Part shown: positions 41,633 to 44,590 of the stretch, in pieces
How positions within the stretch are numbered: position 1 is the first letter of the stretch
How the letters are laid out: the number at the start of each line of letters is the position of its first letter
DNA from: Barnesiella sp.
GTDB taxonomy: Bacteria; Bacteroidota; Bacteroidia; Bacteroidales; Barnesiellaceae_A
DNA length: 64,000 bases
Assembly (NCBI GenBank): GCA_045645425.1
Contig: JAZRIS010000026.1
Location: 3,785-67,784 of the forward strand
Reading direction: 5' to 3'
Position numbers and translations under genes: made by a program
Notes under the pieces: model-generated
The model's database searches: none
The model's input: the letters and a program-made list of their open reading frames with translations, nothing else
Told to the model about the DNA's origin: nothing

Positions 41633-42574
41633 TCAATCGTTCCAAAATCCTCTTGAGCATTCCGATACTCTGAGCTTGTAGCGGGGGTCTTTTATATCGG
41701 TGATTTCTTCTTGTTCTTTTGTCTTCTCGGCTTCGCGCTTTATGATTTCTTTGAAGTCTTTGATGTCGGTGAAAAGGTGTATGTTGGGGTGCTTCTCAAG
41801 GATGGTAAATGTGATGTCGTTGCGCTTGTCGGGCGATAGTATGTATTCCCACAGATTTTGCTCTCTGTTGTTGAACATAAGTAGCAGAATACGAGGTATT
41901 TTCATCAGCGTTCGCTTGGATATTGTGGTGTCTGTTTGGGGGCTGTTTTGCTCTTGTATGGGGTAGTAGCTTGCACTTTCTCTTTTCCTGTCGGAACCCG
42001 GAAAATAGGAGCCTATACTGCCGTCGCTGTTGATGGTGAGAATGGCACAATGAAAGGAGGAAATAATCCATCTTCCCATGAATGATTTTCTTGCCTCGTC
42101 AGAGTTGTAGGGATAGTAAATTCCTTGTGTGTAGGGTAGGTTTGCGGCGTAATATTTGGCGCTCTTTTCGTCGCTTTCGAGAGATTCTATCATGTGTATT
42201 TGCGAGGTGGGTATTCGCCCCTTTCTGAAGAAGTAGTGTTGCGACCAGATTTTTCCTCTTGACTCCTTGTATTGTGGGTTGTATCGCTCGTTTGTCTGGT
42301 AGTAATTTATCCTTTTCCAGATGGGGCGATACCTGTGATTTTTGTGCCAGAAATCGAGCAGTTCTATGCCGGCTTCTTTGCCCGGTAGTGCCAGATTGAA
42401 GGTGTTGGAAATTCTTTTTCTCGTGTCGAGATCGTCGGGTATCGGGAGGAAATCCCGAGGCCATGTGTCAATGTCGGGTCTTACAAAATGTGTTGTTTCT
42501 ATGTGCTTGAATAGCTGTTGTGTAAGTCCCTCGTAGGCATCGTTTTTGTTGTCGTATGTGTGTAATCTTACCAT
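41633..42574 (-). CDS. highly divergent 6-phosphogluconolactonase/NagB-fold protein (function unknown)
   Basis: Start placed at MVRLHTY (alternative ATG at 42646). FNLALPGKEAG...W.RINYYQTNERYNP and FHCAILTINSDGSIGSYFPGS parallel the 6PGL family blocks LSGGSTP...W..vhff.gDERcVP and LLGmG.DGHtASlFPgs. Confidence 0.45.
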   Translation of the reverse strand: MVRLHTYDNKNDAYEGLTQQLFKHIETTHFVRPDIDTWPRDFLPIPDDLDTRKRISNTFNLALPGKEAGIELLDFWHKNHRYRPIWKRINYYQTNERYNPQYKESRGKIWSQHYFFRKGRIPTSQIHMIESLESDEKSAKYYAANLPYTQGIYYPYNSDEARKSFMGRWIISSFHCAILTINSDGSIGSYFPGSDRKRESASYYPIQEQNSPQTDTTISKRTLMKIPRILLLMFNNREQNLWEYILSPDKRNDITFTILEKHPNIHLFTDIKDFKEIIKREAEKTKEQEEITDIKDPRYKLRVSECSRGFWND

Positions 42575-42655
42575 GATGAAAAATATATAAATTGTGTTGA
42601 TATAGTCTTTATTATATAAACACATTGAGGGGCTTGTTTGTTCCATCGTTTATGT

Positions 42656-42709
42656 AAAAAACATCGACTTTATATGTCTTTTTTTGTGAGTGACATATAA
42701 AGTCGATGT
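42656..42709 (-). terminator. rho-independent terminator/attenuator upstream of the 6PGL-like gene
   Basis: Perfect 18-bp stem (acatcgactttatatgtc / gacatataaagtcgatgt) with a 13-nt loop. On the minus strand it is followed directly by ttttt. Confidence 0.75.
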
Positions 42710-42816
42710 TTCTTACAATCATATAACCTAATATTCCAACTGCATTGAGTTGTGGTCTTCTCGTTGTCGCATCGCGCGTGTGCCGAAACAAACCCTGTCC
42801 TTTCTCTTGGACACTG
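42710..42816 (-). ncRNA. candidate cis-regulatory leader or small RNA (unclassified)
   Basis: About 100 nt lies between an exact minus-strand -7 box (42817-42824, caaagata on plus) and the terminator at 42656-42709. It contains local hairpins (UGUCC/GGACA, CAACU/AGUUG). I recognised no known riboswitch consensus. Confidence 0.35.
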
Positions 42817-43032
42817 CAAAGATAGCTCCTTGTGTTGCTATGCGACAATAACGCAATGTAGTGAATTTGCATTCGTTTGTTACCAATATATGATTAGTGC
42901 ATGAAAAATGCCTGTGTTTTGCGGTGCTTTCTGTTGTTTGTGGTTATCGGTTTGATATTCAATGTGTTGTGCTGTTGATAAATTCCTTGAAAATTCTTCT
43001 TATATTATTGTGTAAAAGCTAATAAAAATTAG

Positions 43033-43040
43033 TATTTTTG
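43033..43040 (+). promoter_or_regulatory. -7 promoter box (TAttTTTG) for purH
   Basis: Exact TAnnTTTG 26 nt upstream of the ATG at 43067. Confidence 0.5.
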
Positions 43041-43066
43041 CCGACACATAACGAAAGAAAACAGTG

Positions 43067-44590
43067 ATGGCAAATCAGAAAAAAATAAAAACCGCCTTGG
43101 TGTCGGTTTTTCACAAAGATGGTCTTGATGACATTATAAAAATGTTGCATGCCGATGGTGTAGAGTTCCTTTCAACCGGCGGCACACAGTCGTTTATCGA
43201 GTCTTTGGGCATTCCTTGCAATGCCGTAGAAGATCTCACGGGTTATCCTTCTATCTTGGGAGGTCGTGTAAAGACATTGCACCCCAAAGTGTTTGGTGGT
43301 ATTCTCAATCGTCGCGACAATGCTACCGATATAGCTCAGATAGCCGAGTATGAGATACCTTCGATAGACTTGGTTATTGTCGATTTGTATCCCTTTGAGC
43401 AAACAGTTGCTTCGGGTGCAGAGGAGAGTGCGATTATCGAAAAGATAGATATAGGCGGTATATCGCTTATACGCGCTGCGGCCAAGAACTTCAATGATGT
43501 GGCTATTGTGGCATCTAAAGGACAATATGCTATCTTGTCGGATATTCTCAAACGCAACGGCGCCTCAACAACACTCGAAGAGCGTCGCTTGTTGGCACGA
43601 GAGGCGTTTGCTGTTTCGTCGGGATATGATAGCGCTATTTTCAACTACTTTGATGCCGGCGAGGGCTCGACATTCCGCGCTGCTGTCAATGGTAGCAAAG
43701 CCTTGCGATATGGCGAAAATCCTCATCAACAAGGAGCTTTCTATGGCGACTTTGAGGCTATGTTTGAGCAGTTGCATGGCAAGGAAATATCGTACAACAA
43801 CTTGCTCGATATAGATGCTGCCGTGTCGTTGATATCGGAGTTTGACGAAACAACTTTTGCTGTGCTCAAGCACAATAATGCTTGCGGAATAGCCTCGCGC
43901 GATACCATTCTTGATGCGTGGAAGGCTGCGCTCGAATGTGATCCCGTATCGGCTTTTGGCGGTGTGCTTATAGCTAATCGCCCCATCGACTTGGCTACTG
44001 CCGAGGAGGTGAATAAGATATTCTTTGAGGTAATCATTGCTCCCGAATATGCTCCTGAAGCATTGGAAGTGTTGAAACAAAAGAAAAATCGTATCATCCT
44101 CGTTCAAAAGCAAGCCAACAAAACAACCAAGCAATATCGTTCGTTGTTGGGCGGTGTCTTGGTACAAGACCGTGACTTGCACACCGAGCAACCTTGCGAG
44201 TTGCGACAAGCTACCAACCGTGCGGTTGAGGCTGATCGCATTGCCGACTTGCTCTTTGCCAATAAGATTGTGAAACATAGCAAATCTAACGCTATTGTGT
44301 TGGCCAAAAATCGTCAGCTATGTGCCAGCGGTGTAGGCCAAACTTCGCGTGTGGATGCTTTGCGTCAGGCTATCGAGAAGGCTCATTCGTTCAATTTCGA
44401 CCTCAATGGTGCAGTGATGGCATCCGATGCCTTCTTCCCCTTTGCCGATTGTGTAGAGATTGCACACAAGGCCGGAGTGGATGCAGTGATACAACCCGGT
44501 GGCTCGGTAAGAGATCAAGAGACCATAGACTATTGCAATGACAATAATATTGCGATGGTAATGACCGGCATACGCCACTTTAAACATTAA
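43067..44590 (+). CDS. purH: bifunctional AICAR formyltransferase / IMP cyclohydrolase
   Basis: About 507 aa (ATG at 43067; the ORF track starts at GTG 43064). Contains ALVSVFHKDG...LSTGGT and the C-terminal AICARFT domain. Confidence 0.95.
   Translation: MANQKKIKTALVSVFHKDGLDDIIKMLHADGVEFLSTGGTQSFIESLGIPCNAVEDLTGYPSILGGRVKTLHPKVFGGILNRRDNATDIAQIAEYEIPSIDLVIVDLYPFEQTVASGAEESAIIEKIDIGGISLIRAAAKNFNDVAIVASKGQYAILSDILKRNGASTTLEERRLLAREAFAVSSGYDSAIFNYFDAGEGSTFRAAVNGSKALRYGENPHQQGAFYGDFEAMFEQLHGKEISYNNLLDIDAAVSLISEFDETTFAVLKHNNACGIASRDTILDAWKAALECDPVSAFGGVLIANRPIDLATAEEVNKIFFEVIIAPEYAPEALEVLKQKKNRIILVQKQANKTTKQYRSLLGGVLVQDRDLHTEQPCELRQATNRAVEADRIADLLFANKIVKHSKSNAIVLAKNRQLCASGVGQTSRVDALRQAIEKAHSFNFDLNGAVMASDAFFPFADCVEIAHKAGVDAVIQPGGSVRDQETIDYCNDNNIAMVMTGIRHFKH

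Follow-up and report, generated by a model that had tools for sequence, protein, structure and literature searches.

How iron and redox metabolism is controlled after transcription is well known from Proteobacteria, Firmicutes and cyanobacteria, but in Bacteroidota the study of such control has barely begun. The sole iron-responsive small RNA (sRNA) reported in this phylum, whose members lack both Hfq and ProQ (PMC13750123), is IroR (BTnc022) of Bacteroides thetaiotaomicron, an RNA required for iron homeostasis and induced when iron is limiting (bioRxiv 10.1101/2025.09.08.672848). The ferredoxin BT_2414 goes down under the conditions that induce IroR, and effects of this 263-nt RNA (PMC7366714 supplement) on capsule and polysaccharide utilization locus (PUL) genes have been reported, while its direct targets are not known (bioRxiv 10.1101/2025.09.08.672848). 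The content of iron-sparing sRNA regulons has been summarised elsewhere (PMC13750123; bioRxiv 10.1101/2025.09.08.672848). Here we describe a locus in a 64,000-nucleotide stretch of a Barnesiella sp. genome (contig JAZRIS010000026.1; this whole stretch is called the window below, and coordinates follow its numbering unless another contig is named). The element lies on the minus strand in a 417-bp spacer between two divergent genes, purH (plus strand, from 43064) and a Glucosamine_iso/6PGL-like gene (minus strand), and its predicted transcript is ~157 nt long (42656..42813). An original prediction, made from the letters of the window, had described the region as either a riboswitch or attenuator leader of the 6PGL-like gene or an independent sRNA of ~150 nt. 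The sRNA alternative fits our results and the leader alternative is poorly supported by them. We find that the locus is, on the evidence of its conservation and structure, a real, previously undescribed and genus-restricted sRNA gene, and that its product probably acts in trans, as a stand-alone RNA, on the mRNAs of ferredoxin and other iron proteins.

The spacer is present in 12 of the 13 other genomes of the genus, at roughly 70% identity, and absent from all 27 genomes of other families that we searched. The congeners with the RNA are uncultured Bacteroidales known as metagenome-assembled genomes (MAGs) from ruminant rectum or colon and from human gut. Together with the present genome they make up the 13 species that we aligned on the −7 promoter box and to which the counts of species below refer. 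A 23-nt stretch, AAUAUUAGGUUAUAUGAUUGUAA (42713..42735, minus strand), which lies directly before the terminator and which we propose to be the seed, is identical in all 13, against a mean column identity of 62% for the element as a whole.

Upstream of the seed the RNA is predicted to fold into three helices, all on the minus strand. P1, the 5’ hairpin (42796..42813), is short in this genome and 9–12 bp long in most relatives; its sequence differs among species, and all of its modelled pairs show compensatory changes (11/11). The P2 domain (42754..42794) has an outer stem GGUUUG... / ...AGACC around an inner stem and a conserved hairpin CGC-GYGAU-GCG (42778-42768). Compensatory changes occur in six of the ten outer and inner pairs of P2, and in one species the small hairpin has changed from CGC/GCG to CGU/ACG. 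P3, a small hairpin CAACU / AGUUG (42737..42752), is found in 11 of the species; it shows no covariation, and in G005 (L020) it is replaced by another hairpin. The 5’ domain also contains conserved unpaired bases. The intrinsic terminator (42653..42717) follows, with a stem of 19 perfect bp, or 26 bp if one mismatch is counted in, a loop of 13 nt and a T-run (42661-42656). Its hairpin and T-run are present in every species with differing sequences, and compensatory changes are seen in 18 of its 22 pairs. The hairpin and T-run of the original prediction are thus real, but the 18 bp at 42661-42709 that it gave were too small: around the 19-bp core the arms extend over 26 nt each (42653-42678 and 42692-42717, 96% complementary), six T form the T-run, and the hairpin is the longest inverted repeat of the window.

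A covariance model built on this architecture of P1, P2, P3, 23-mer and terminator scores 71–174 bits in the 13 species. In the alignment fitted to the model, 85.6% of the cells are paired, compared to 35–43% when the pairing partners are slid; compensatory changes affect 36 of 51 helix pairs, compared to 16–25 with slid partners; and the covariation score is 0.374, compared to at most 0.13. None of 500 shuffles reaches the observed values. Fitting the alignment to the model somewhat favours the structure, and the folds of single sequences show the same helices independently. A 176-nt stretch of this genome folds at −57.5 kcal/mol, compared to −30.5 ± 3.7 kcal/mol for shuffled sequences (z = −7.4; 0/200 shuffles equal). 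The region is thus conserved within the genus and covaries, as the original prediction had supposed a functional RNA would, and these conserved, covarying helices indicate that the locus encodes a structured RNA under selection.

Two coding explanations were considered and set aside. Reading frames that open at the AUG inside the seed differ in length (12–17 codons in three species but far more in L019), extend across the stem of the terminator and have only Met-Ile-Val in common. The overlapping 86-aa open reading frame (ORF; 42612-42872), in which the original prediction had seen no coding features, indeed has no Pfam match, and neither its ATG nor its frame is conserved.

The ~157-nt RNA would be made from its own promoter of the Bacteroidetes type, with a −33 TTG and a −7 TAnnTTTG, and ended by the strong terminator. 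The −7 box, TATCTTTG (42817..42824, minus strand), fits TAnnTTTG, the promoter element of the Bacteroidetes primary sigma factor, and its extended form TAnnTTTGCA is invariant in all 13 species. The exact minus-strand box that the original prediction had placed ahead of ~100 nt of non-coding sequence therefore stands, read at 42824-42817. From it we place the transcript start at 42813 ± 2, and the 3’ end would fall in the T-run. The −33 element, TATTG with a TTG core (42846..42850, minus strand), has the form (G/C)(C/T)(T/G)ATTG(C/T) in 13 of 13 species, and its TTG (42848-42846) lies 21 nt upstream of the −7 box. A −33/−7 spacing of 21 nt is typical of Bacteroides promoters.

Only one copy of the element exists in its genome, and the idea of a repeat or mobile element was therefore rejected. 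A cmscan of 42300-43200 against 4227 Rfam families at E <= 10 returned only miRNA-type hairpin matches on the terminator, far below gathering scores; neither RyhB (RF00057) nor any other Rfam iron sRNA was found at this threshold. The covariance model likewise gave no convincing match in other genera of the order, which account for 149 of the 151 genomes scanned. Weak matches in G147 and G109 (26–28 bits; E 1e-3 to 6e-3 per genome) resembled the seed plus a terminator and were treated as chance; the one in G147 looks like an ordinary gene 3’ end.

We searched for complements of the 23-mer over the whole 2.14-Mb assembly (G000) and ranked 1917 predicted 5’ regions by their pairing with it. The best complement in the genome, apart from the gene itself, is a perfect 15-nt match in the 5’ untranslated region (UTR) of a gene for a 55-aa 2x[4Fe-4S] ferredoxin. 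With wobbles the duplex extends to 18–19 bp at −22.0 kcal/mol, which ranks first of the 1917 regions by duplex energy (mean −8.5, sd 2.1), and the site also ranks first when the intramolecular structure of both RNAs is charged (ddG −18.6; mean −5.7, sd 2.6). The site is found 8–9 nt past the −7 box of the ferredoxin gene and ends 21 nt before its AUG, and would thus lie at the extreme 5’ end of the ferredoxin mRNA; the leader is at about 96420-96379 of G000:C2 (minus strand). The site is conserved in 12 of 12 genomes retrieved: in 10 species the 20 nt of the UTR that match the paired stretch form an invariant block, next to which the bases vary. Of dinucleotide-shuffled seeds, only 1.7% attain a match of 15 nt in any 5’ region.

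Neither partner of this pairing rises above background outside the genus. The 23-mer, with up to three mismatches, gave 18 matches there compared to ~20 for a reversed control (397 genomes), and a 20-mer of the ferredoxin leader, with up to two mismatches, also stayed at the control level. The exact 19-mer of the seed occurs in 13 contigs among 185,579 species genomes, of which twelve belong to congeners and one is a chance match. The latter, on L064 (JABHQR010000017.1), a MAG labelled 'archaeon', lies inside an AT-rich ORF resembling HAD phosphatases and was for this reason discarded. Because the seed and the ferredoxin-leader block are not above control in other families, the RNA and its sites appear together in one lineage.

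Further iron-linked genes stand high in the ranked lists: an NfnA-like gene for an Fe-S flavoprotein subunit, whose AUG is covered by 17 pairs with a single bulge, and those for the fumarate reductase flavoprotein and a predicted cytochrome b subunit, PFOR, RnfA, a small 4Fe-4S subunit whose gene adjoins the Rnf genes, rubrerythrin and ferritin. These identities were confirmed by Pfam, except that the cytochrome b subunit is named by its position alone. The NfnA-like gene has its start at 2770 of G000:C28 (minus strand). By cofold ranking, 8 of the top 32 genes encode iron, Fe-S or ferredoxin-linked proteins, and the top 20 include two of the ten proteins that carry a 4Fe-4S ferredoxin motif (hypergeometric p = 0.004). 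When the full-length RNA was cofolded with each target, the seed was used every time. Separate targets pair with different halves of the 23-mer, which would explain why the whole of it is invariant.

Several of these sites are kept across the genus. The NfnA-like site is retained in 14 of 14 genomes (−13.4 to −21.6 kcal/mol) and the site of the 4Fe-4S subunit in all 11 genomes from which it was retrieved (<= −14.7 kcal/mol), with stronger pairing in G011 and G012. The PFOR site, ACCTAATA, is kept in 13/14 genomes, with one base changed in G005, the rubrerythrin site in 11/14, and the ferritin site in part only. The genus-mean duplex energies are −19.4 kcal/mol for ferredoxin, −16.7 for the NfnA-like gene, −15.6 for the 4Fe-4S subunit, −14.4 for rubrerythrin, −13.2 for PFOR and −12.9 for ferritin, compared to means of −9.3 to −10.8 kcal/mol for five control families (purH, mreB, mce, mmdA and 6PGL-like). 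At most one in 200 shuffled seeds equals the real genus means.

Two of these targets lie in surroundings that we note in their own right. The leader of the 4Fe-4S subunit gene, downstream of rnfA (G000:C24 about 94460-94546), is almost invariant in the genus and holds UGUGAUUGUAA, which resembles the 3’ half of the seed, between two copies of UUACAAU; the sRNA could compete with this internal hairpin. A Fur-family gene lies directly upstream of the rubrerythrin gene (G000:C11:19108-20071), with the predicted sRNA site in the short spacer between them. The rubrerythrin has an N-terminal rubredoxin-like domain, and the arrangement looks like a PerR-rubrerythrin pair.

Matches of this kind might also be read at the level of DNA, with the motif AATATTAGGTTATAT and its complement forming a transcription-factor operator at the promoters of ferredoxin, PFOR and other genes and in the present spacer, and with the RNA itself being functionless. 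The RNA gene does share this double-stranded motif with the leader DNA of several genes for iron proteins, at the ferredoxin gene it lies just past the predicted start, a common position for a repressor site, and the genome has two Fur-family genes, at G000:C35:26738-27022 and C11:19108-19377. However, the 7-nt core of the seed complement is found in 5’ regions 19 times on the sense strand and once on the antisense strand, and the motif tracks the start codon rather than the promoter, being intercistronic at PFOR and rubrerythrin and lying over the AUG of the NfnA-like gene. At the RNA gene it is ~80–100 nt downstream of the promoter. In addition, the use of different halves of the 23-mer by different targets fits RNA pairing better than a fixed operator, and the compensatory changes in three helices reflect selection on RNA structure. 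We therefore regard an operator as very improbable.

The alternative that the RNA belongs in cis to the 6PGL-like gene deserves more weight, and we rate it as improbable. The gene (41633-42574, minus strand) lies on the same strand, 82 nt after the terminator, so that promoter, structured leader, terminator and gene follow each other in the order expected of an attenuator or riboswitch, whose 5’ part would sense a ligand or protein and whose terminator would gate read-through; a terminated by-product might even act in trans. As to where the gene begins, the original prediction had offered 42646 or 42574. The alignment of orthologues begins at 42574, and stop codons follow the ATG at 42646 in four species; this frame is not conserved. 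Of the 12 congeners with the RNA, 10 have the gene right after it, among them G011 and G012, where something other than purH lies upstream; the contig of an eleventh, G010, breaks off too early to tell. The conserved unpaired bases of the 5’ domain also speak for this alternative.

In G008, however, the promoter, structure, invariant stretch and terminator are all kept and the 6PGL-like gene is gone, with ~560 nt of CA-rich non-coding DNA between the intact RNA and the next gene, so the linkage is not obligate. The 6PGL-like protein is only 25–40% identical among congeners, compared to 88–100% for the products of the flanking genes purH, mce, mmdA and mreB, and from these values the gene would be either very fast-evolving or decaying; the 23-mer next to it is invariant. 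It is this unstructured 23-mer, and not a junction or pocket, that is the most conserved part of the RNA, and it is complementary to conserved mRNA sites elsewhere in the genome, whereas the 5’ region of the 6PGL-like gene is not complementary to it (genus mean −9.6 kcal/mol). No Rfam aptamer class matches, in agreement with the original prediction, which by eye had matched the leader to none of the riboswitch classes that it named. The folds of the 13 species reveal no conserved alternative pairing, and with terminator arms that differ among species no conserved antiterminator is evident; a weak pairing between the 3’ arm and UUAUAUG of the seed would be feasible in some species. Between the terminator and the 6PGL-like start lie two conserved non-coding motifs, ATGGAACAA (42646-42638, minus strand) and ATGTGTTTATAT (42625-42614, minus strand). 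They occur only in species that retain the gene and may represent a separate promoter of the gene, perhaps one used by an alternative sigma factor. Taken together, G008, the fast divergence of the gene, its linked motifs and the lack of seed complementarity argue against an obligate leader. Given how often RNA and gene adjoin, a secondary cis role through terminator read-through is possible.

There are also observations that weigh against a trans-acting RNA with iron-protein targets, among them this persistent adjacency to the 6PGL-like gene, even with a different upstream neighbour. A and U predominate in the seed, and in 5’ regions its core word AACCTAA is just ~1.5–2x commoner than words of like composition; an enrichment of 13-fold that we had estimated at first was inflated by composition and has been discarded. 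Taken as a class, the 4Fe-4S proteins show no shift in rank (Mann-Whitney p = 0.40), and all targets except ferredoxin were selected once this genome had been ranked, which makes their statistics optimistic. Furthermore, the seed is partly paired in the predicted fold (unpaired probabilities 0.2–0.98). In G011 and G012 the ferredoxin site carries one mismatch that is unmatched by any change in the seed, and with an invariant seed no compensatory change between seed and target is demonstrable. Three public metatranscriptomes cover only pieces of purH (word depth ~3). We found no recurring Fur-type box in the promoter, and a position weight matrix of the conserved promoter box has no second copy in the genome. 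Finally, the 99.7%-complete assembly has no match to Flavodoxin_1 (PF00258), and thus no flavodoxin of this family to replace ferredoxin.

Several of these points would be expected if the RNA were an independent structured sRNA whose iron-protein targets are wrong, the 23-mer being a platform for a protein or pairing with other RNAs and the complementarity resulting from AU-rich composition and post-hoc selection. The evidence for the RNA gene is identical under this alternative, and it would accommodate the modest enrichment of the core word, the non-significant rank-sum test and the lack of seed-target compensatory change, along with the 1.7% of dinucleotide-shuffled seeds that attain a match of this length, 15 nt, in some 5’ region. 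Nevertheless, two scoring methods place the ferredoxin site first in the genome, and the predicted duplex falls on the conserved block of the UTR. Over 11–14 genomes, duplex energies stay low in six target families, whereas in five control families they do not. The sites are at start regions regardless of the distance to a promoter, those of PFOR and rubrerythrin, for example, being in short intergenic spacers. For these reasons we consider it unlikely that the targets are wrong.

As to expression, one public run of unknown kind yielded a 151-nt contig over 42644-42794. Upstream of the core promoter the alignment shows two further elements on the minus strand. One, of the CAAAATCAC type (42861..42869), adjoins the −33 element on its upstream side in the alignment of the 13 promoters. 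The other is a conserved box, ACTAATCATATATTGGTAAC (42879..42898), at about −85 to −66 relative to the predicted start; its GGTA is invariant in the 13 species and its distance to the −7 box is fixed, and it may be a transcription-factor site. On the other side of the spacer, purH (plus strand) carries its own TAnnTTTG box, TATTTTTG (43026-43033), ~30 nt ahead of its start and inside a block conserved in the genus. With this box and the promoter of the RNA, the spacer contains two back-to-back promoters ~200 bp apart.

What the predicted targets have in common, above all the presence of ferritin and rubrerythrin beside Fe-S enzymes, suggests iron limitation as the trigger of the RNA, by analogy with known iron-sparing regulons; redox or growth-phase control would fit nearly as well. 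We note that this genome, which lacks Flavodoxin_1, depends on ferredoxin-using enzymes (PFOR, 2-oxoacid oxidoreductase, Rnf and Nfn-like).

We thus favour, as the probable explanation, an RNA whose 5’ part would fold into three helices and whose invariant 23-nt stretch would serve as the seed. The halves of the seed would pair in vivo with the 5’ UTR or start-codon regions of the mRNAs for ferredoxin, the NfnA-like protein, the 4Fe-4S subunit and rubrerythrin, and more weakly with those for PFOR, ferritin and fumarate reductase. Such pairing would most likely reduce translation and/or mRNA stability, and as a result iron-rich, ferredoxin-centred electron-transfer proteins would be turned down in a RyhB-style iron-sparing response. 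More tentatively, we hypothesize that the RNA could be the counterpart of RyhB in Bacteroidota. It would then spare iron independently of Hfq, its direct targets (ferredoxin, Nfn, Rnf/2-oxoacid oxidoreductase subunits, PFOR, rubrerythrin, ferritin and fumarate reductase) would be recognisable in the sequence, and its seed would have originated along with the leaders of these targets within one genus; this is possible, but we would not yet call it probable.

If true, this would be the first iron-sparing sRNA in the phylum with defined pairing sites. The locus offers concrete candidate pairings, of the 23-nt seed with the 5’ end of the ferredoxin mRNA and with several start codons, and in a phylum without Hfq or Shine-Dalgarno-led initiation these bear on the way in which such mRNAs are repressed by sRNAs. 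The locus is also an example of how MAGs alone can reveal a lineage-specific sRNA and the leaders of its targets, with a practical weight that is limited by an uncultured host and an analysis wholly in silico.

Among described systems, the RNA resembles RyhB (RF00057) and its analogues PrrF, FsrA, IsrR, IsaR1, NrrF and MrsI in being a short intergenic RNA with its own promoter, an intrinsic terminator and a conserved single-stranded seed. Its predicted targets are also the classical iron-sparing set of ferredoxin, ferritin, fumarate reductase/succinate dehydrogenase and other Fe-S enzymes. In contrast, it has no similarity to RyhB in sequence or structure, its ~157 nt with a three-helix 5’ domain compare to 90 nt for RyhB, no Fur-type box was identified at its promoter, it is confined to one genus, and its link to iron is drawn by analogy from the targets. 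With GibS, MasB and similar Bacteroides sRNAs, which act in trans independently of Hfq through single-stranded seeds near start regions without a Shine-Dalgarno sequence (PMC13750123), it would share the mode of action. Its sequence and host genus are different, and so is its predicted regulon, with energy and iron proteins where theirs concern glycan metabolism or tetracycline tolerance; we detected no homology. IroR (NC_004663.1:643196-643459), compared here by its length and by the 19-mer of the seed, is longer (263 versus ~157 nt), and the 19-mer is not found in B. thetaiotaomicron. By host, IroR is nonetheless the nearest relative of the RNA described here, and both would be linked to iron, in our case by prediction.

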